Assembly: GCF_002087085.1 (NCBI RefSeq)
Contig: NZ_MWQY01000001.1
Span: forward strand, 124,001-188,000
Direction: 5' to 3'
Length of the DNA stretch: 64,000 nt
In this document: positions 49,901 through 61,510 of the stretch, piece after piece
Position numbering within the stretch: the stretch's first letter is position 1
Layout of the letters: every line of letters starts with the position of its first letter
Program-made: the position numbers and the translations under genes
Notes under the pieces: generated by a model
Seen by the model: the letters and a program-made list of their open reading frames with translations, nothing else
What the model was told of the DNA's origin: nothing
Databases searched by the model: none

Positions 49901-50617
49901 TCATTCCCGCCATTCTTCTGCGGCTAAAGGCAATTCGTTAAGTTCAGCTCGGGCCTCTTGCCAGCCTGGATAGTGCTTTGTGAGCAAGGAAATAAAACGG
50001 TCGCTGTGAGTTGGCTCTACCAGGTGGAGCATCTCATGTACAACAACGTATTCTATCAGATCCTTTGGTTTTTTGACTAGTTCAGTGTTTAACCTGATAT
50101 GCCCCGCCGTGTGATTGCACCCACCCCATTTGGTCTTCATTCGCTGAAGAAAATAGGCTGTTACCTGTACACCGAGTTTTGGTTCCCACTTACTGATCAG
50201 GGTGGGGATAAGCTCATGCAGGAGGGTCTTATGCCATTTGTGGATAATTGATGCTCTTTTAGACTGATCGCTTCCTGGTCGAATACTCAGTGTGATCCGT
50301 TTATGGTCAACCTTTACAAAAGGTTTTGCGTCCTGTTCAAGAACTGAAAGCAGGTGTCTCCGTCCCCATAAATAATGGCTTTCCCGTTCAATGAATTCCC
50401 GTGGTGTTTCCCGATCCTGGCTACGCAGTTTTTCTTGCTGCTCACGTATCCAACCAATCTTTGTGATCGCGTAGGCACGAGCTACTTCAAGTCGTGTTTC
50501 CTTAGGGGCGGATAATGTCACACGGCCTTCTGGCGGATGAACGGAAAGATGGACATTTTTAATGTTCTTCCGTGTCACCGCAATTGCGATATCACCAATT
50601 AAAATCGTCTCGTTCAT
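49901..50617 (-). CDS. M48/YgjP (DUF45) family metallopeptidase-like protein associated with type I RM
   Basis: [26 protein letters not shown] (HExxH); overlaps the hsdR stop by ATGA. Confidence 0.9.
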
Positions 50618-53600
50618 GCATAGCCCGGCTGGTTCTTGATAATTTCAAATATCGCCTTTGTTGCTTCACGATCCCGCCCAACAAGAGGAAACAGCGCATT
50701 GAGGACTTGTTTCTCACGTGTGTCGTCACCCCTCCATCCTGCCGGGGCTTTTTCTCTCATGGCATGGTCGATTTCAAGCGTCAGGTCAAGTCGCGTTGTT
50801 CCGAAGTACTCCGGGGTTTCTCTTGCTTCTCCGGCAGCAGTCGGATCGGCAAGAATCGAGGGCAGATTATTGTAGATCACCATCGCTTCACGTTTACCAA
50901 CCAGTTCAGCCGGGATTTCCTCATCAGCCTGACCTTTGGCCATCTGCTCAACCAGAGCTTCAGCTTTACGGAGAAAAGCTTCATAGGATTCCGTGTCATC
51001 GCGCTTTTGTTTTATAAGGTCATCAAACAACTTCGACAGTTCTTCGTAAAACCTGGGATCGGTCAACTGATCGCGAATGATCGTCTTGCGAACGTTGTTG
51101 ATTATGCCCTCGGCAACAGCATTCTTTGAGAGTTTTCCTTTATCGTTGAGCTTCTTCGCGATGGCGTCATGGATACCGGTCTCTATGATCAATTCAACCA
51201 GTGAATAGTTGTTCACCGTTCCCAGAGGGTCAGCTGGTTCGGCTTGAATATAGGTGTTGATGAGGTGGCGCATGTCCGCCTCATAGGGCTTGATGTCAAG
51301 CTCTTCACCGGAGTGCTTCTTGATCGCAGCACGAATCTCACTGAAGAATTCAACTTCTCTGTTCAGCAAGGCGATTTCGGTAGAGGAGTAACCGGCTTCT
51401 TCGAGATCCTGAGAAATGGCGGCAAAAGCCCGAACAAAGGTTGCCACCGATTTGTAGAACGAAATACGCAGAGCCTCAGTGTCATTCAGCGCATTTGGAT
51501 CATTGGCGTCACCACAGAAGTAGCGCAGATACTGCTCTACCTCACGCGGTGCAGGAACCGGCTCACAAAGATATTTCAAGGCTTCGCGGGCAGCTTCGAG
51601 CTTCGCTTTTCCCTCTTTCAACCAATCCCTGAGATGGATGTTGTTGCTCCCACCGCTGCCTTCGTCAATGTCCAACTTGTCCGAGCTGTAAACCGCAATG
51701 GCCTGCTGCACGTCCCTAAAAAGCTCCTTGAAATCGACGATATACCCATAATCCTTATCGTCTCCATCGAGACGGTTTGTGCGACAAATGGCTTGAAATA
51801 GATTATGGTCGTGTAGTTCGTTATCGAGGTAGATATAAGAACAGGATGGGGCATCGAAGCCGGTTAAAAGCTTGCTGACCACGATCAGCAATTTGCAGTT
51901 GGCAGGCTCTTCAATAAAGCGCCGCTTGGTTTCATCCTCATACTGTTTGGTCGTCTGGCCGTTCTTCAGCACATGCTGGGTGTAGGTATCGAACTTGTAG
52001 CGCTCATCGCTGTTGGCGGGCTCTCTTGAGATCGCGTTATGGTTTGGCTCGTAAGAGGTGATGATGCCACAGTACTGGCCAAAAGAAGTGTTCTGGAACA
52101 GCCGGAAATAGTGACAGGCGTCATAAATGGAAGCCGCAACCAGAATGGCCGTACCCCGATCGTTATTCAGACGCGGTTTGAGGCCAAAATCCTCGATTAT
52201 GTTGGCGACAATGCGTTGCTTGCGCTCCCCTGCGCTCATTAATTCTTCCATGGTTGCCCATCGTTTGCGCAGAATAGCCTTCTGGAAATTATTCAGGTTC
52301 CTGGTCTTTCGATCGAACCAGGCATCAATGGCGTTCTGTGATGTCAGTCGCTGCGGTACGTCGCGGGCTTCGTATTTGAGGTCAAGAATTACGCCGTCGG
52401 CGACTCCTTGATGAAATTTATAGGTATGGATATAAGTACCGAACACCTCACGGGTGGTCTTCCTGTCTTTACGCAGCAACGGGGTACCGGTAAAGCCGAT
52501 GAAGATGGCGTCTTGCATCCAGTGTTTCATCTGTTTGTTCATATCGCCACCTTGGGTCCGGTGGCACTCATCCACAAAGATGTAAAAACGCCCATGAATC
52601 GGCGGCGGGTCATTCTTGATGCCAGGATCGAACTTGTGGATGAGCGCACAGAGCAGGCGTGGTGTGGTAGCGCTGAGTTTCTCCAAGAACTGCGCTCGCG
52701 AGGTAATACGAGGCGATGGTGCTTCCTCGCCGATCACCCCGGCGTTGCGCACGACACCCTCGATTTGCTTATCCAACTCGTCGCGGTCGGTTATAACCAG
52801 AATTCGCGCATTCGGATCGTGCTCCATCAGCCATTTGGCGATCAACACCATGAGAATGCTTTTGCCGCTGCCCTGGGTATGCCAGATGACTCCCCCTTCT
52901 CGTTGTCGGATGCGCTCCTGAGCTGCTTTGACGCCGAAATACTGGTGAGGTCTGGGTACCTTCTTCTGACCCGCATCATAAATTATGAAGTTGCGGATCA
53001 TGTCCAGCAGTCGCTTTTTATCGCACATCTGGGCTATAGGTCTGTCGAGCAATGTCCCGGTCTCCATTGCACTGCCACCTTCCTCGTCTTTCCATTGAAC
53101 GAAGAACTGCTCGGGGGTACCGGTGGTGCCGTAACGGAGTCCCTGAGAATCGCTGCCCGCGAAGACGAGCTGAACCGTGCTGAAAAAGCCGATATTAAAA
53201 ATCTCTTCCTGGTTGGTAATCAGCTGGCGTACACCGTCAGCCAGTTCCACTGAACTGCGTTTAAGTTCGATCACGCCGATGGCGATACCGTTGATATACA
53301 AAACCAGATCGGGGCGTCGTTCATAGCCGCCTTTCAGAGTTACTTCCTCGGCCAGGGCAAAATCGTTTTCCTCCGGATGCTCCCAGTCGATGATGTGCAC
53401 ATCTACGTGTGGTTGACCTGGTGCAAGCAGCACCTTGACCGGGTAGCGCAACAGGTTATAGGTGCGCATGTTGGCCTGGTAGAGGGCGACGCCAGTGGTG
53501 TCGGCAGCGGTTTCCAGCTTTTGCAGAGCGGCGGATATGTGGGCATCCGAATAGCCGCGCCTATTGAGGTTTTCCCTGAGATAGTCTGTCTCGATTGGAC

Positions 53601-53724
53601 GGTTGTTTTCTCGTTTGTGCCAGTCTCCAAGGTAGTGATAACCCAGATAACTCGGGTTGGTTGCATCTGTAAAAAGAGATATTACCCGGGTTTGGGTGGT
53701 TCGTTCGGGTCGTACTCTCTCCAT
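50614..53724 (-). CDS. hsdR: Type I restriction endonuclease subunit R
   Basis: PDLVLYING...IELKR nuclease motif, [35 protein letters not shown]. Confidence 0.96.
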
Positions 53725-55658
53725 CACGTTAAACCATCCCGTGGCTGACCCTCGAATACCGCCTCTTCTACATCCTCGTCGCGAAGGCGGTCAATTTCAT
53801 CATCGTCTTCTGTTGTAGTATCAAAAGCATCTGCAATGTAGAGCAAATTCCCCAACTCTTCTCTAAGAATTTCTCGTCGGGCATTGAAGAATTCCGGGAA
53901 GTCGTCAAACGCTAACTTCAATTCCTCAGGGAAATAGTTGCTCGTGATGAAATGCTCACGTTCACGATTGGACATTCTCTGAAGCCAGTCCTTCAATGGT
54001 GTTGCGTTCTTGGACTGATTCTGCGACCCTTCCATAAGTTGCAGATTGGGAACCTGGTCGCGCCATTCCCACCATTGTGCGTACTGCTCAGAATTAATGC
54101 CCATTGCCTCAAATTCTTCACGACAGAACTTTGAAGCCGGATGGATATGGTCCTGATGGAAAGAATTCTCTCCGTACCGTAGCTGAGGATAAAGCAGTTG
54201 TAGTACGGCAAATGCGGCAGGTCCTTTGCGGTATTCAATAAACCGATTTACATCTTCTGCGGTAACCTTGAGTGATTTGCCGCCCGGCAACTGTACATCG
54301 GCAAAACATCTAAAGTCAAATGTCTTGTAGGTATCTCTAAGTGGATAAAACCCATCGGATTGTCGGGCGTCTGCTCGTAATGTATTTCGAATTTTGCTGA
54401 GGAGCTGGTCCTGGGATGATCCAAAAACTTGTTTCAGTAATGCATGAACCAGATAAAGTCTCAGCTCATTCCGGGACTTTTTATCCAGAGAACCACCTTT
54501 ATATATGTAGTACACAATTGGGATAGTAGCATTGTTGGATGTGAGTGTCTCTTTTGAAAAACCGAACTCTACCAATAGTTCAACCGTTCTCACTATGGCT
54601 TTGGCAATCTTTTGCCACTGTTCACGTATTGTCTGTACATTTTCAGCCTTGAACGAATGAACCTTATAAAGCACAGGGCCGTCGCTGAGAACAAGACAAC
54701 AACGCATAAGATATTCTGTACCAAATCCAAAACCCTGACCTAATCCGTTAATTGTTTTTTGAATTGTTTCGATCTCTTCTCGCCCGTTGTCCCAGGTGGC
54801 TACAATGGTCGAAAACAGAAGATCTGTTTTGCTTAATACAGTCCCGCCACTGTTGACTCGCACGAATATCTTCAGGATGTCTTCTAGGTCATCCTTGGAG
54901 ACCTCAAAATAGTTAATCAGAGGTTCTTCCCGAACCCGCTTGTTAAGATCCGCCAACCCTTTGCGGACAAACCTGCGTGCACCACGAAGCGCTTCCGCTT
55001 GTGACGAATCAACGCAGGAGATGGCCACCTGGTCGATGTAGTGATCAATGTCGGGATCTTTCGGCCATTCCATAATCTCTCCGACGCGGAACCAGCACAT
55101 ATGTTCTTTGTTTGTGGGATTATCCTGCGTTTGACGCATGGTGTGGCTATTGACAGCAGCCGTGGTTAGAAAGCGAAATTCAAAATTTCGCTGTTCATCT
55201 TGTTCTAGCCCCCCGTCTATGTTCTGTCGATAGGGCAGGGAGAGAAGGTTTAGATATAGATATGTTTTCTTGTATGCATCCGGGCTTGATGAACGTTTCC
55301 GGTAGCCCTTTTCGGTATGTGTACCCTGGAGCCCAATATAGATTGAGCTCAGTCGTTGCTGGCCGTCTAGTACACCGGTAATTTTATCCGGTGTAAAGGC
55401 ACCGACTTTCCTATCATTGAAAGGTGTTCGCTCGTCGTAGAATCTATTGAACTCGTAAAACACATAGTTATTCGCGTTCTTTTTATCGAGTTTCCAAAAA
55501 AGAAAAGTCCCAAAGGGATAACCACGCATAATCGAGTCGAATAGCAACTCAATTTGCCCTTTGCCCCAAACAAAGCGTCGTTGCAGTGCGGGCAGAAACA
55601 TACGGCCGCCTTCGATCTCGCTTATAGCATCATACAGAGACATTTTATGGTAACTCAT
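53724..55658 (-). CDS. GmrSD-type (DUF262 plus C-terminal HNH/DUF1524-like) modification-dependent type IV restriction enzyme
   Basis: [30 protein letters not shown]...DL; C-terminal HQDHIHP...NLQLM....NQSKN. Confidence 0.9.
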
Positions 55659-55778
55659 ATCAACCTCTTTTTCTCGTTAATAGTTTGCACATTATGGCAG
55701 AACGGAACATACAGGAGATTTTACGCCGCTGTTTAAGTTCTGCGAGCCCTGGATCCAATAATATTTTGTCGATTTCTT

Positions 55779-56789
55779 TTATAGCTTGTATAGTGTGCGA
55801 TACCAATCCGCCCACTCCTTAAGTGAATTATTTCGAAGTGTTTCTGCTGCCTGGATAACATCCCTCGAAGTAAATATTGAAAATTTCGAATTGTTGCCGA
55901 TCAGGTCTATGTAGTCTTTGATGGAAGCATCAAGAGCCGTATTCCTGGGATGCCGAACAACTGAGAAGTGGGCATGCATGAAGGTCCCTTGCTGTTCTAC
56001 TGCGAATGTCAGCAGTTGGTTACGCCAAAGCTGGTTCATGCCTCCCTGGAATGGACACTCTTCGTGTTTTGCATGATTTACAAAGAAATCTCGGTGGATT
56101 TCAGAAATGTCCCAGTACCTGTACCCACAGATATCGTGGTAGTAGCAGGAATCTTTGCTTTCCATAATCTCACGGAAGTTTCGCGTACAGTCGTGGCGTA
56201 TTTTATCCGTACGCCCCTTGCTCTTATATCCTCCACATTTCGTGAACTCCTTTTCCGTCAACTTGTGTTCAATCAACCAAAGGCATGGTTCGTCGTTGTG
56301 GTTGTAGTAGGCAATCGCCAGATCAGCATCGGTTCCGGCCATTGCGCTCTTATCGTTAAGCGCACCTGTGGGTTCATCCCAATATTCAATTCTCCAGCCG
56401 TGATCCAATTTATCAGTGGCGAGACGTGCGAAGTCTGGATTAAGTTTTCTGATAATCTCATTTGCTCCGGGATTCAGTAAAATTGGCAAGAACAGATTAA
56501 TGTTTGCCGCCTGCGAGCTGGCCATGTGGTTGAAGTACTTGTGGATACGGAAAGGGAAACGATCATGGTGTTCCATCATCCGTGAGACAAGGTCCCTGTG
56601 CAGAACCCGGAGATTTTCAGCGTACCGTTCTGGCAGGATGGCATCATATTCAATGCCGCGGTCGTGTCCAGGATCCTTGGTGATATTTTCCCATTTCCAG
56701 TTGATTAGGTGGACATACATTTCGAGTTGGAAGTTGTTTAGATTATTGGGCAGTTTGTAATCTTGTCCGTCTATTTTTTGTATTCTCAT
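55779..56789 (-). CDS. Putative PD-(D/E)XK restriction-endonuclease-fold nuclease (PGN_0703-like), Cys-rich
   Basis: HMASSQAANINLF, IEY, GTDADLAI, IEHKLTEKEF (D...ExK), C...C...C...CPF, NQLWRNQLL. Confidence 0.72.
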   Translation of the reverse strand: MRIQKIDGQDYKLPNNLNNFQLEMYVHLINWKWENITKDPGHDRGIEYDAILPERYAENLRVLHRDLVSRMMEHHDRFPFRIHKYFNHMASSQAANINLFLPILLNPGANEIIRKLNPDFARLATDKLDHGWRIEYWDEPTGALNDKSAMAGTDADLAIAYYNHNDEPCLWLIEHKLTEKEFTKCGGYKSKGRTDKIRHDCTRNFREIMESKDSCYYHDICGYRYWDISEIHRDFFVNHAKHEECPFQGGMNQLWRNQLLTFAVEQQGTFMHAHFSVVRHPRNTALDASIKDYIDLIGNNSKFSIFTSRDVIQAAETLRNNSLKEWADWYRTLYKL

Positions 56790-56823
56790 ATCAATATAGT
56801 CCTGCGGATAAGGTGTCTGTTCA

Positions 56824-57369
56824 TCATGATTTCACAATAAACGGTTGAGGGCTTAGATTTCCCGGTAGATATAACGGATGAGTCGGTGTTCCGTTTTTTG
56901 TCAGGCGCAGATAGCAGAGTCGCGGATGATCGCTGAGGAGAGCGACCACTTCGTTGCTATGCCGATGAAGTGCTTTGGGAGGCAAGCCGTACGCCAGTAC
57001 CACGGTTTCGGCTTCGGCGGCCATCTCAATAATCATTTGATCGTTTTGCGGGCCCACCGGGTCATGCACCTTAAGCAGTCGATTCTTGTCGGTTGCCCGG
57101 TAGGCATGGACATTGCCTACCAGCTGTCCGCCAAAACCCCAAGAGCGTGAAAACTTGCCTGTCTTACGGAGCGTTGGATCGCTGAAGTCGAGGCACGCTA
57201 CGCTGGGATTCATCAACAGCCAGAGCACCAGCGGTCGAGACGGGTCCCAAATTTCGCGCAACTGATAACGGTATCGCTGGCATGGGGAAAATACGGCGGT
57301 GACCTTGGAATCGTCCGGCCAGGCGGGGCGTACCTTGCCGCTTGGGTCGTGTTTTGGAGACGGGCTCAT
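56824..57369 (-). CDS. DUF1643 domain protein
   Basis: FSPCQRYRYQL...W, LMNPS, DPTLR, WGFG, NVHAYRAT, VVLAYG, TKNGTPTHPLY; its ATG overlaps the hsdS stop. Confidence 0.88.
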   Translation of the reverse strand: MSPSPKHDPSGKVRPAWPDDSKVTAVFSPCQRYRYQLREIWDPSRPLVLWLLMNPSVACLDFSDPTLRKTGKFSRSWGFGGQLVGNVHAYRATDKNRLLKVHDPVGPQNDQMIIEMAAEAETVVLAYGLPPKALHRHSNEVVALLSDHPRLCYLRLTKNGTPTHPLYLPGNLSPQPFIVKS

Positions 57370-58658
57370 ACAGTTGTTCTCGACGTTGCTACGAGTCGTG
57401 TCTTCCCGGTCAGCAGTTCCTGCATCATGGTCAGTTTGAGATCTTTGGTTTTGTCGCGGCGCTGTTCCAGAACGGCGATCTCGGCGTCCATGTCGGAGAG
57501 GACGGTGGCGATGGCGGTTTGCTCTTTGGTCTCTGGGACTGGAATATCGATCTCAAGATATTCATTTATTCGGATGTTGGGATATGTCGATGCCTCACAC
57601 AATGATGGCAACATACTTTTTATGCGATTTGAAGTGAGGAAAAAATATAAGAAGTTCGGGAAAATCGCTTTCGGACGAAGTCGCATCAGGAAATTGCTGA
57701 ATAGAAAAGCTCCAGCCAATGACCGATCAATAAGGACCATCTTTCCGGACTGAATGCTTGCCGCTGAGCCACTGGATTTCACAACGACCAAATCGCCAAC
57801 CGAAACGCCATAAGTCGCTACCTGTTCAGAGGTAAAGAACCGTGTTTGCATGATTTTGCCATTCCATCGGTCATCGTTCGAAATTTGGGCGGTTGTTGCG
57901 ACTGGCATTGGCAACAAAGTTGGTGATTGCCGTTCGACACCATATGTCCCACTCGGAGCGCAGTCGACTATCTCCCTAAGGCGCTTAACCTCCCACTCCC
58001 CCTCAAACCCCGGCAGGCGGGTCTCGCCGGTGAGGAGTTGCTGCATGGCAGCCTGTTTGAGATTGCGCTTCTTGGCGATCAGCCGGTCAAGTCCATCCAG
58101 CAGGGCATCCACGTCGCTCAAGGCGGTGGCGATGGCGCGTTGCTCGGGAAGCGTTGGAATGGGTGCAAGGACAAGCCCGAGATTCTGTTGCCCAACATTG
58201 GCGCGAACTGCGCCTTGTCCCATTGGAACAATTTGTGAACGGATGACGGAAGCGCGGAGTGCATACCCGGAATATACAGGGTTAAGGCGCTTGTTGAGCG
58301 GTCTACCTCGAATGACAAATCCTCCAAAAACGACACGTTCGGTTCCAAGATATGTTGCCGCTAAAGCAACCTCATCCTGCGTCTCCGAGGTGCGATTGAA
58401 TAGCACGTCACCCATGTGGACTGCGTAAGAAGAAATTACTGATTCAGGCAACGTAACCTGGCCGGTAACTTCAGGCCCGTGAATATGAGTATAGGTAATC
58501 GGTTCAAGCACATTGATAAAGCGGACACCCTGACCATACGATGCTTTGTCTGCATTGACACCGTTGCGGAATGCAAAGAGCTCAGCAAATGGTACTATCT
58601 CCCAATCTTCCGGAATCACCCCCACCTCGGTTTGTTTGTATCCCGGCTTCAGTTCCAT
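57366..58658 (-). CDS. hsdS: Type I RM specificity subunit
   Basis: GYKQTEVGVIPEDW; two TRDs each followed by a conserved P..EQ.AIA..LSD.DA...MQ.LLTG.TRL helix. Confidence 0.95.
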   Translation of the reverse strand: MELKPGYKQTEVGVIPEDWEIVPFAELFAFRNGVNADKASYGQGVRFINVLEPITYTHIHGPEVTGQVTLPESVISSYAVHMGDVLFNRTSETQDEVALAATYLGTERVVFGGFVIRGRPLNKRLNPVYSGYALRASVIRSQIVPMGQGAVRANVGQQNLGLVLAPIPTLPEQRAIATALSDVDALLDGLDRLIAKKRNLKQAAMQQLLTGETRLPGFEGEWEVKRLREIVDCAPSGTYGVERQSPTLLPMPVATTAQISNDDRWNGKIMQTRFFTSEQVATYGVSVGDLVVVKSSGSAASIQSGKMVLIDRSLAGAFLFSNFLMRLRPKAIFPNFLYFFLTSNRIKSMLPSLCEASTYPNIRINEYLEIDIPVPETKEQTAIATVLSDMDAEIAVLEQRRDKTKDLKLTMMQELLTGKTRLVATSRTTV

Positions 58659-61387
58659 ACCGCCCCCATTCGCTTGAGGTGTTCATCGACACGGGCCGAC
58701 AGGTCTGTCACTTCGCTCACCAGTTTCGGGAGCGGCGTGTCGTACCGTTCGGCAAGCTGACGAATGCGGGTGGTGAGAGTCTGAGAGACGCGATCCAGTT
58801 CACCCTGCACGGCCATGGCCAGAGTGGCCAGCCACTTGTCATCTACGACCAGGGTCTTGATCTCGTCCACGCTGAGCTGTGGGTATTTTTCATAGGCCAG
58901 CTTGTCCAGTGCGGCATCCGCTTCCTTGACCTTGCTTTTGAGTGCGCTTTGCTCGTCGAGCAGCGCCAGGAAACGAACTGTGGCATGCAGATCGACAAGA
59001 TTCTCCGGCAGAGGGTCGGCCTTGAGTCGCTTCTGGTATTGCTTCTCTACTTTGGCGAGAAGCTCAGACGCTTCTTTGGTTGCAGCCTTCTGCTCTTTGT
59101 CCGCTTCAAGATAACTGGTAAGTATCGCGCTCTCCTTCGGATCGCTGGTCGCGGCCAGTCGATCTTTGACTGCCTTGAGGGTCAAATTGCCCTTGTTGTT
59201 CTTCAACACGGAAATAAAGTGGTGATCGGTGAGAACTCGGATCTGCGTAGCGTGTTCCTCGGCCTGATCCATGAGGGCGCTGTAAGCGCGACTTGCGGTT
59301 TTGTCTTCCTCATTCCACACAGCGACGAGCGCCTGGGTGTATGCCTCCTGGGCGTCGCCCTTGGTGGAAACATCCTTCAGCGCACCCTCTTCACCGCCGT
59401 GCTCTTCGGCTAACTCGATGAGGCCGGTGCTAACAGCATCCAGTTCGTTTTGAAGGGCATCCAGCTCGGCCTGCTCTTCGGCGAAATAGCGAGCGACGAT
59501 AGTGGGTTTGGGGATCAGGTCGCAGACCCAGCCTTTGTCTTTCATCTCGCCCTTTTTCTTGCCGCTCTTGACCTCTTCCATGACACGATAGGGCCTGGCC
59601 ACCCAGCCATCGGCGGCGATCAGGTAGCAATCGTCCTGGATGGCTTCAGCCCAATAATCCATGAGGTGCTGGTAGATGTCATAGGCATCAAGCAGCGGGG
59701 CATTACGGAAATTTGTCAGCAAGTCCTCGGCAATGGTCTCAATCAGCGCTTTGGGGTGTCCTTCCTTGTTAAAGCCTTTCAGGGCCGGTGTGTTGGTTGT
59801 GCGCCAATGATCAAAGATTTTCGTTACGGCCGTTTTAAATGCCGTAAATTCGCTGTGACCCAGAATGGCCGACTTCACAGTAGAAATAGGCGATTTCAAC
59901 CTGGAATAACCGGGACGACCAGCGCTTTCGAAGAGTTCTTGCCGAACGCCGGGGATCACCTGCCAATAGGCATTCAGTGCATTGATATCCCGGTCGGGAA
60001 TCCCTCCGCGCAAATGACCGTCGATGTCCTGAATGTCCTCCGGGGAGGTAGAGTCGATGTAGCGTGGCAGATTAAGGTTGTAATCGTTTTTGGGGCCGGA
60101 AATCTCGTCGAAAGGCACCATGCGGGCATAGCGGGGTGTATTGGTCTGCTTGTTAAAGGTGTCGACAATCCTATGGATGTCCTGCTCGCGCAGACGGTTC
60201 TTGTTGCCGTCCTTGATAAAACCCTTGGAGGCGTCGATCATGAATACGCCCTTGCGCGCAGGCGCATTTTCCTTGTCGAGCACCAGGATGCATGCGGGAA
60301 TACCGGTGCCGTAAAACAGGTTGGCAGGCAGCCCGATGATACCTTTCAGATACCCGGAGCGGACCAGACGCTTGCGAATAACGGCCTCGGCATTGCCGCG
60401 AAACAGCACACCGTGCGGCAGGATGCAGGCCGCTTTGCCGGTACTTTTCATAGAGCGAATAATATGCAGCAGGTAAGCATAGTCACCCTGTTTTGCAGGT
60501 GGCTCTCCCCATTCAAATCGCTGGTACAGATCAGCGGCAGGCGAGAATCCGGTACTCCAGGCTTTGTCCGAAAACGGCGGATTTGCTACAACAAAGTCGT
60601 AGGTCCGCAAGTTCTCGCCATCCTTGAACTTTGGAGATGCGAGCGTGTTCCCATTAAGGATATTGGCTGTCGGAAAATCGTGCAGTATCATGTTCATGCG
60701 GGCAAGACCTGCGTTGGTCACGTCTTTTTCCTGCCCTTCAAGGGTGATGCGTGTGTCTGCCTCGGCAGCCACCTTTAAAAGCAGTGATCCGGATCCACAG
60801 GTCGGGTCATAGGCTGTAGTTGAGGCAACAGCATTCTGTGCAGAAATACCTATGACCTTCGCCATGACGCGGCTGACCTCAGAAGGTGTATAGAACTGCC
60901 CTTTGCTCTTGCCGCTCTCAGTAGCAAAGTGCCGCATGAGGTACTCGTAGGCATCCCCTAGAATATCGTCGTGATCGGCGCGGTTCCTGGAAAAATCGAG
61001 CTCAGGCTTTTGGAAGATGCTCACCAGATTGGTGAGTCTATCCACCATCGCCTTGCCCTCTCCGAGTTTGTTCGGGTCGTTAAAGTCGGGAAAGTCGCTG
61101 CGGGCCAGACGTGTATTGTTGTCAATCAGCGGCTGAATGATCTGCGTGTTGATCTTGTCGCCGATATCGCTCTTGCCCTTGAGTTTAATCATATCCTGAA
61201 AGCTGGAACCTTTTGGTATGACTACTGGTGGCTCAAACCCATCGTAGTTGGCGTATTTATCGGATATATATTTTATAAACAACATAAAAAGGACATAGTC
61301 CTTGTACTGGCTGGCATCCATTCCGCCGCGTAATTCATCGCAACTAGCCCAAAGGGATGAGTAAAGCTCAGATTTCTTGATGGCCAC
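58649..61387 (-). CDS. hsdM: Type I RM N6-adenine methyltransferase subunit M, with long C-terminal helical extension
   Basis: LWASCDELRGGMD, GQFYTP, DPTCGSGSLL, NPPF, LPHGVLFRG. Start reassigned to GTG 61387 (MAIKKSELY). Confidence 0.96.
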   Translation of the reverse strand: MAIKKSELYSSLWASCDELRGGMDASQYKDYVLFMLFIKYISDKYANYDGFEPPVVIPKGSSFQDMIKLKGKSDIGDKINTQIIQPLIDNNTRLARSDFPDFNDPNKLGEGKAMVDRLTNLVSIFQKPELDFSRNRADHDDILGDAYEYLMRHFATESGKSKGQFYTPSEVSRVMAKVIGISAQNAVASTTAYDPTCGSGSLLLKVAAEADTRITLEGQEKDVTNAGLARMNMILHDFPTANILNGNTLASPKFKDGENLRTYDFVVANPPFSDKAWSTGFSPAADLYQRFEWGEPPAKQGDYAYLLHIIRSMKSTGKAACILPHGVLFRGNAEAVIRKRLVRSGYLKGIIGLPANLFYGTGIPACILVLDKENAPARKGVFMIDASKGFIKDGNKNRLREQDIHRIVDTFNKQTNTPRYARMVPFDEISGPKNDYNLNLPRYIDSTSPEDIQDIDGHLRGGIPDRDINALNAYWQVIPGVRQELFESAGRPGYSRLKSPISTVKSAILGHSEFTAFKTAVTKIFDHWRTTNTPALKGFNKEGHPKALIETIAEDLLTNFRNAPLLDAYDIYQHLMDYWAEAIQDDCYLIAADGWVARPYRVMEEVKSGKKKGEMKDKGWVCDLIPKPTIVARYFAEEQAELDALQNELDAVSTGLIELAEEHGGEEGALKDVSTKGDAQEAYTQALVAVWNEEDKTASRAYSALMDQAEEHATQIRVLTDHHFISVLKNNKGNLTLKAVKDRLAATSDPKESAILTSYLEADKEQKAATKEASELLAKVEKQYQKRLKADPLPENLVDLHATVRFLALLDEQSALKSKVKEADAALDKLAYEKYPQLSVDEIKTLVVDDKWLATLAMAVQGELDRVSQTLTTRIRQLAERYDTPLPKLVSEVTDLSARVDEHLKRMGAVWN

Positions 61388-61510
61388 AATTCTATCCTTT
61401 TGATGTTCTTTTAGTCGACGTTCCGCCGGATTTTTTGAAGCGCTGAGTCGTAAGATCACACACCGTTATTTATAACATATTTTTGGCCTCGATGTGAAAT
61501 TACAAACGAT

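Follow-up and report, generated by a model that had tools for sequence, protein, structure and literature searches.

Three probably independent cargo genes stacked between hsdS and hsdR of a Type I restriction-modification operon

When three unrelated genes lie side by side inside one restriction operon, do they make up a single defence system or did they arrive separately? The question is raised by a Type I restriction-modification (R-M) operon on contig NZ_MWQY01000001.1 of assembly GCF_002087085.1, at positions 49901 to 61387 of the 64,000-nucleotide stretch analysed here (contig positions 124,001 to 188,000; hereafter the window, whose numbering is used throughout). Its seven co-oriented open reading frames (ORFs) lie on the minus strand in the order hsdM, hsdS, DUF1643, PD-(D/E)XK nuclease, GmrSD/BrxU-like gene, hsdR and YgjP-like gene. 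The cargo between hsdS and hsdR comprises a DUF1643 protein of 181 amino acids (aa) (56824..57369, minus strand; Pfam DUF1643, 4e-36), a PD-(D/E)XK nuclease of 336 aa (55779..56789, minus strand; Pfam REase-ARP 9e-19 and PDDEXK_13 1e-14, both over cut-off) and a 644-aa GmrSD-family Type IV enzyme of the BrxU/HEC-05 type (53724..55658, minus strand; Pfam GmrSD_N 1e-27, PADLOC HEC-05 1e-188). An earlier note on this DNA had read the trio as one cassette. Our computational analysis indicates that the operon is probably an intact, horizontally acquired Type I system whose slot after hsdS holds three independent single-gene modules stacked one behind another.

Two neighbourhood surveys carry this conclusion. 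One was centred on the nuclease and sampled one genome per species (the best 80 of 152 confirmed relatives); the other was centred on DUF1643 and drew on metagenomes (the best 80 of 168 confirmed relatives). ORFs were labelled by phmmer with the window's seven proteins as queries, DUF1643 being sought with a profile as well. The closest relatives of the nuclease, which are metagenomic and 60-70% identical, fall outside the surveyed loci. Neither phmmer nor the profile placed DUF1643 near the nuclease in any of the 80 nuclease-centred loci; the sole weak profile match in that set (4e-5) lies 2.4 kb off and on the opposite strand (locus L060). Likewise, the nuclease was near DUF1643 in 0 of the 80 DUF1643-centred loci. 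Among the surveyed loci the pairing occurs in the window alone, and the trio was never found together elsewhere within the sample, an outcome that the earlier note had said would speak against its cassette. With DUF1643 and the nuclease co-occurring in 0 of 160 loci, the idea of one recurring cassette did not hold up. However, both surveys are samples, and it counts against our reading that a rare true trio may exist elsewhere.

Each module also occurs on its own, with neither of the others, in this slot of this Type I family, and is frequently the sole cargo. Of the 80 nuclease-centred loci, 26 have hsd genes on both flanks of the nuclease and 34, with enough sequence to tell, on neither; it is the only gene directly between hsdS and hsdR in at least eight (L006, L008, L016, L018, L032, L038, L042 and L084), and in 11 the hsdS stop and the nuclease start share 4 nt. 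Of the 80 DUF1643-centred loci, 21 place the gene in a Type I context, 19 of them recognized by gene calls and two (L097 and L099) placed via the locus table and hsdS-end matches. It lies directly between hsdS and hsdR in nine loci (L092, L093, L095, L096, L098, L100, L108, L112 and L157); the sequence of L088 is cut off just upstream. Judged by hsdR (phmmer scores of 1730-1828), the Type I systems with DUF1643 are of the same subfamily as the window, and so are L032 and L084, where the nuclease is the only cargo. A protein with the DUF262 domain of GmrSD enzymes lies directly downstream of the nuclease in 7 of 80 loci and after DUF1643 in 4 of 80; each GmrSD pairing recurs roughly at the background rate of GmrSD in the hsdS-hsdR slot.

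It could be argued that the trio, or at least DUF1643 and the nuclease, is one cooperating system in which a glycosylase leaves abasic sites for the nuclease to cut. The two genes are adjacent, co-oriented and 34 nt apart, and the chemistry, with abasic sites formed in modified phage DNA and cut by the neighbouring enzyme, is plausible. The accessible part of the report on the Brig3-BapA operon also indicates that defence glycosylases can have helper genes (bioRxiv 10.64898/2026.02.25.707755). However, the two genes are never together in the surveys and each is often the sole cargo. In L085-87, which have the closest relatives of this DUF1643 protein (85% identical), the next gene is Zeta-toxin-like and not the nuclease. 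Related loci also have the hsdS end as the upstream flank of the nuclease, as would be expected if the nuclease had formerly been first in the slot. We regard a cooperating system as very unlikely. As independent modules, the three genes would have been collected one by one in the slot just after hsdS, and would ride on the transcription of the operon without forming a three-part machine.

The 3' end of hsdS offers a possible route for such collecting. In the window its conserved stretch (57386..57430, minus strand) encodes ..MMQELLTGKTRLV and is detected by nhmmer with an E-value of 1.8e-12, or 3.8e-16 on a short segment. Between loci this end, encoding ..MMQELLTG(R/K)xRLV, is near-identical in DNA, and at all 17 hsdS-DUF1643 junctions examined, that of the window included, hsdS has seven extra codons before the shared ATGA. 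A profile of 40 hsdS ends was run by nhmmer over all loci and further copies were scored at E<=1e-3. Besides the expected internal repeat of HsdS, it matched a second copy of about 45 nt downstream in 12 loci (L010, L032, L033, L072, L085-87, L091, L108, L112, L117 and L162). Comparison of gene maps put each extra copy just behind a cargo gene and, in most cases, right against the point where the following gene begins. Direct repeats of the hsdS end on either side of a cargo gene are what recombinational insertion at that site would be expected to produce, and would explain the stacking of modules. The repeats therefore suggest cassette-like insertion of cargo at the hsdS end in these 12 related loci, where genes would enter and stack by recombination at the conserved 3' end.

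The window itself fits this picture less well. No second hsdS-end copy was found by nhmmer after its DUF1643 gene, even in a 424-nt search, which weighs against insertion by this route, and the spacers before the GmrSD-like gene and before hsdR held no copy by the same method. The 39-nt stretch from the DUF1643 stop to the nuclease start (56789..56827, minus strand) may contain a decayed copy, with a weak match of 22 of 39 bases by manual count. It opens with ATGATG, and clear copies hold that place in L085-87, L108, L112 and L117. Given the blank nhmmer result, the 22 matching bases are only a weak positional hint.

GmrSD/BrxU-type enzymes are nucleoside triphosphate-dependent nucleases that cut DNA with modified cytosines. 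The third cargo gene had been assigned to GmrSD in the earlier note, and we agree: in addition to the GmrSD_N match, the HEC-05 profile covers residues 1-607, and the protein keeps DGQQR in its N-terminal DUF262 domain and the DHIHP..N..N motifs. For a C-terminal DUF1524 nuclease of the His-Me finger type the signs are mixed: Pfam GmrSD_C was not matched at E<=0.01, but DHIHP, followed by Asn residues, is present and resembles the DHIYP of BrxU. By analogy with its family, the enzyme would cut modified-cytosine phage DNA and, since such DNA is what the family cuts, it would cover phages that escape HsdR. The accessible text of one report describes demonstrated activity of the GmrSD family on modified phage DNA and cites earlier notes that its homologues are common in Type I loci, RloF being an example (PMC11411939). 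The same text describes TgvAB, a GmrSD-like pair in the Type I operon of V. cholerae VPI-2 that protects against phages with glucosyl- and arabinosyl-hydroxymethylcytosine independently of HsdR, and proposes a complementary layer (PMC11411939).

Like TgvAB, the window has a GmrSD-family enzyme between Type I hsd genes. Unlike TgvAB, it has a single protein of the BrxU/HEC-05 type and two further unrelated cargo genes, and we rejected a TgvAB identity because the operon holds one DUF262 protein where two are required. TgvAB-like pairs, of about 600 and 820 aa and both with DUF262, do occur in the related loci L013, L019, L031 and L162. HEC-05 is BrxU, whose motif is DHIYP in the accessible part of its description (bioRxiv 10.1101/2024.01.29.577857). 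The window's enzyme resembles BrxU in its full-length PADLOC match, in DGQQR, in DHIHP against DHIYP and in being embedded inside another defence operon, but it is hosted by a Type I R-M system and not by BREX or Hma, and GmrSD_C is unmatched.

The prr locus of E. coli has the order hsdM-hsdS-prrC-hsdR, and the function of PrrC is coupled to that of the Type I enzyme. This locus and the rlo genes of Campylobacter resemble the window in that a back-up gene occupies the same slot inside a Type I operon. However, the window's cargo has no anticodon nuclease, ABC-ATPase or HEPN domain by Pfam, and we saw no coupling. A PrrC-type anticodon nuclease was rejected as a candidate, since no cargo gene has an ABC-ATPase head or an anticodon nuclease domain. 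Back-up defences in Type I operons and GmrSD enzymes in this slot are both known, so the idea of layered defence is not new. The accessible portions of two sources already describe a modification-dependent enzyme embedded in Type I loci as a layer that complements them (PMC11411939; bioRxiv 10.1101/2024.01.29.577857). For the window, the layered reading given in the earlier note stands where GmrSD is concerned, through the family match and the published precedent, but not for a three-gene unit, in view of the lack of co-occurrence in the surveyed loci. Stacked independent cargo in a Type I operon is a known kind of arrangement.

The hsdS-hsdR slot is a general collecting point. A Pfam scan of slot neighbours identified GmrSD-like genes, some of them in TgvAB-like pairs; McrB-like AAA_5 genes with a partner; nucleases of the NucS_C-like, PDDEXK_3 and YhcG types; DUF429; DUF4062 and Fic-like proteins; and the Zeta-toxin-like gene of L085-87. 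In L091 (10586-15149) DUF1643 is followed by an AAA_13 ATPase, a SMODS+AGS_C nucleotidyltransferase and a SLATT_4 effector, a CBASS-like set within a Type I operon. In five loci (L013, L019, L031, L036 and L050) the gene after the nuclease encodes a GmrSD-like protein of about 590-600 aa, from a single cluster in all five. A second DUF262 ORF comes next in L013, L019, L031 and L036, measuring 816-832 aa in three of them and truncated to 85 aa by the contig end in L036. The nuclease and a TgvAB-like pair, which occur together inside Type I operons and outside them (L019), may be one composite that is spreading in Bacteroidota and their relatives. Where DUF1643 is the sole cargo in L093, L095, L096 and L100, a gene for a 370-aa Mrr_cat restriction endonuclease precedes hsdM.

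That the second cargo gene encodes a nuclease is well supported. Its family profile match is over cut-off, and a conserved D..(D/E)xK motif lies on a restriction-endonuclease fold. More than 1000 homologues were found, mostly of exactly 336 aa and 56-70% identical across phyla. In a 30-sequence alignment D154, D156, E174-H175-K176, Cys185, Cys201 and Cys245 are invariant, and Cys215 is nearly so. The nuclease has no cognate methylase. It had no match in PADLOC-DB 2.0.0 (E<=0.001), NCBIfam or PHROG; its model had no Foldseek match in PDB at E<=0.001, and comparison with PDB chains by sequence and profile returned chance-level matches only. The term REase-ARP was absent from the literature searched. 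From genomic context and weak fold evidence, modified DNA is a plausible target. With its intact D..ExK site and conserved Cys cluster, the protein would act as a stand-alone defence nuclease, maybe a modification-dependent or licensed one. Two REase-ARP homologues (L171 and L172, genome G035) lie among mobile-element genes (RadC, HTH, RecT, Gam-like and DUF6573) with no restriction operon. In L029 a uracil-DNA glycosylase (UDG)-family gene stands beside the nuclease, but it encodes an ordinary glycosylase of the MUG type and was not counted as a pairing.

What, then, might DUF1643 contribute? In the literature searched, as far as its accessible portions go, no function is given and the name serves as an annotation label only; PADLOC-DB 2.0.0 has no family for it at E<=0.001. 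The superfamily is large, with 14,824 cluster representatives at E<=0.001, and R34, N54, P55, D64, T66, N86, G128 and H164 are invariant in an alignment of 93 sequences. Members of the window's clade are 70-85% identical across Acidobacteriota, Planctomycetota, Nitrospirota and Verrucomicrobiota.

One possibility is that DUF1643 serves the Type I enzyme itself and is no defence effector, for example as a regulator, as a factor that alleviates restriction or as a guard against anti-restriction. The gene is translationally coupled to hsdS, with a 4-nt overlap in 16 of the 16 loci in which hsdS was called directly upstream, always with the same seven-codon extension and within one Type I subfamily, and a distant relative lies beside a Lar restriction-alleviation gene. 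The embedded copies also cluster on a quick tree of DUF1643, with 9 label changes compared with 17.8 in shuffles (0 of 500 shuffles were as low). However, starred branches of that tree force at least three separate placements of the embedded copies, and Type I operons of the same subfamily without DUF1643 exist in L032 and L084. The nuclease has the same 4-nt coupling to hsdS in its 11 loci, so the coupling belongs to the slot and not to DUF1643. Furthermore, members of the same clade, about 70% identical, have no nearby hsd gene in at least 26 of the 78 loci with room on both sides. An accessory role seems distinctly unlikely to us.

Several features of the family weigh against a purely defensive role. 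Identity of 70-85% across phyla is unusual for a defence gene, and at least those 26 of 78 loci have no hsd gene nearby; the neighbours that we checked in hsd-free loci look like housekeeping genes (PQQ_2, DUF1501, CorA and VTT). The wider family is present in 149 phage records (Pseudomonas, Caulobacter and Mycobacterium), and distant relatives, 32-60% identical, appear in 1169 plasmid records, 910 of them conjugative, with one fixed place in IncC backbones. The superfamily is also carried on SCCmec elements. On a P. aeruginosa plasmid a DUF1643 relative overlaps the Lar gene (L173 and L174 were the examples examined). Carriage by phages and plasmids and the Lar neighbour would suit a role in offence or repair no less than one in defence. 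DUF1643 might accordingly be a repair or nucleotide-sanitising enzyme that is useful to any replicon and hitch-hikes in the slot without being an immunity gene. Its very high conservation, the size of the superfamily, its mobile carriage and housekeeping-looking neighbours, and the presence of DNPH1, a nucleotide hydrolase, among its structural matches all agree with this. However, the slot otherwise holds defence genes (GmrSD, McrB-like, CBASS-like, Zeta-toxin-like and nuclease genes), and the window's genome already has three UDG-family genes (G000 contigs C9, C12 and C56). We consider the hitch-hiking repair enzyme improbable. One protein of 618 aa (P0379) fuses DUF1643 to a PIF1-like helicase, which fits a role on DNA.

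Structure prediction hints weakly at glycosylases. UDG motifs include GINPG or GMNPG, the water-activating loop after strand 1, and HPSPLS, of the HP type, near the C-terminus. In the AlphaFold2 model of DUF1643 (predicted local distance difference test score 95.6, predicted template modelling score 0.91), N54-P55 follows strand 1, N86 closes strand 2 and H164-P165 lies near the C-terminus, these residues being invariant or nearly so; N54-P55 and H164-P165 occupy what we take to be the places of the MUG/SMUG and HPS motifs. The best full-length structural matches are members of the UDG superfamily. With the PIF1-like fusion also counted, an N-glycosidase acting on DNA or nucleotides is our best guess for DUF1643, with about even chances, and from genomic context and the weak fold evidence modified DNA is a plausible target. 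Such an enzyme would excise unusual bases and leave abasic sites in phage DNA.

Confidence in the model does not extend to its fold assignment. Toprim, TIR, CheY-like and esterase folds also match DUF1643 at the same Z. The model had no Foldseek match in PDB at E<=0.001, and a profile search of PDB sequences gave 0 matches at E<=10. With hhalign, shallow alignments gave a probability of 0.2% against a MUG-type alignment and of 0.6% (P 0.11) against 30 family-4 UDGs; the family-4 comparison brought strand 1 and its NP loop, as well as strand 2 and N86, into the register expected, but without significance. A search of the ESM Atlas with PF07799 removed returned a single unnamed cluster, whose value of 0.76 is too low to be useful. 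On these grounds the glycosylase reading of DUF1643 is weak.

Defence glycosylases are nevertheless on record: Brig1, Brig2 and Brig3 are described as such in the accessible parts of their reports (PMC11078745; bioRxiv 10.1101/2025.10.29.685425; bioRxiv 10.64898/2026.02.25.707755). We propose a likeness to these enzymes, as DUF1643 too is a small single-gene enzyme in defence loci and has structural matches in the UDG superfamily. A broader proposal would be that the DUF1643 clade represents new, divergent UDG-like defence glycosylases with NP and HP motifs, spreading as a cassette bounded by hsdS ends, with the hsdS end as the attachment site for stacking and the REase-ARP clade as a second uncatalogued single-gene defence there. 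We put this forward tentatively and think it, on balance, doubtful. The possible divergent defence glycosylase and the hsdS-end repeats as a possible insertion site are what we find most interesting in this locus. Two widespread and highly conserved families absent from PADLOC-DB 2.0.0, the DUF1643 clade and the REase-ARP nuclease clade, recur in the slot, and any activity assigned to DUF1643 would annotate very many genes. The repeats of the hsdS 3' end around cargo, for their part, point to a simple route by which passengers could be collected and stacked.

The host operon unites the components of a Type I R-M system: an N6-adenine methylase, a specificity subunit with two target-recognition domains, and an HsdR with a nuclease and a superfamily 2 motor. 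The seven co-oriented genes and the identification of a Type I operon with cargo between hsdS and hsdR, as described in the earlier note, were confirmed by ORF calls and by Pfam, PADLOC and NCBIfam matches. The methyltransferase gene hsdM (58649..61387, minus strand; 912 aa) matches N6_Mtase (8e-95) and HsdM_N (4e-13) in Pfam, MTase_I in PADLOC (E=0) and TIGR00497 in NCBIfam (263.7 bits, cut-off 242.75). We took the GTG at 61387, which has AGGA upstream, as its start; the longest ORF begins at 61459, and the PADLOC match starts only at residue 26 of that ORF. A C-terminal extension of about 440 aa (58649-60000) has no Pfam match and appears rich in charged helices. Relatives of this HsdM are mostly 800-830 aa long, with a few of 903-908 aa. 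The specificity subunit gene hsdS (57366..58658, minus strand; 430 aa) encodes two target-recognition halves and matches Methylase_S in two stretches (7e-17, Pfam) and Specificity_I (2e-81, PADLOC). The restriction and translocase subunit gene hsdR (50614..53727, minus strand; 1037 aa) matches HSDR_N (1e-31), SWI2_SNF2 (1e-67) and a T1R_D3-like domain (2e-31) in Pfam, REase_I in PADLOC over residues 7-1033 (E=0) and TIGR00348 in NCBIfam (472 bits, cut-off 284.55). The operon is intact, with all motifs present and cargo proteins of the modal length for each family.

The last gene (49901..50617, minus strand; 238 aa) encodes a metallopeptidase, as had been noted before, but the former label M48 is better replaced by YgjP-like/SprT-like (Pfam YgjP-like 4e-56, SprT-like 8e-8). 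Homologues follow hsdR as 20 ORFs in the nuclease-centred loci and 14 in the DUF1643-centred loci, and a YgjP-like metallopeptidase is the regular last gene of the window's Type I family.

Reading the junctions from the sequence verified the overlaps reported earlier. The hsdS stop and DUF1643 start share ATGA (57369-57366), as do hsdR and the YgjP-like gene (50617-50614). The GmrSD stop TGA (53726-53724) overlaps the hsdR ATG (53724-53722), and an in-frame GTG for hsdR stands at 53727 (GTGATG, 53727-53722). In addition, hsdM and hsdS overlap by 10 nt. The two junctions that do not overlap are the 34-nt gap between DUF1643 and the nuclease and the 120-nt spacer upstream of the GmrSD-like gene (55659..55778, minus strand), which has a strong ribosome-binding site, AAAGAGG, 6 nt before the ATG. 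This spacer could be the only junction in the operon with room for a promoter of its own; in a consensus scan of the operon, promoter and minus-strand terminator signals did not rise above the level expected from shuffled sequence. The starts of the nuclease and GmrSD genes have TTGATATGAG in common (repeat D18; 55642-55663 and 56773-56794). Since ATGA is found at the nuclease start throughout its family, the second codon beginning with A, the TTGATATGAG repeat is probably not a scar.

Finally, we considered the origin of the operon as a whole. Its G+C content is 45-55%, compared with about 59% for the flanking DNA; none of the 5 same-genus genomes searched yielded the nuclease family, and the best hsdR match within the genus is 30-32% identical. 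Together, the drop in G+C content, the absence of the nuclease from those five genomes and the distant hsdR indicate that the whole operon is a horizontally acquired island. A search of the island boundaries returned no convincing flanking direct or inverted repeats. On one side the island adjoins a gene for a pyruvate formate-lyase activating enzyme, and on the other an oxidoreductase gene. The same genome carries a second, distant hsdR-like gene (G000:C15:35671-37386), which is 33% identical.

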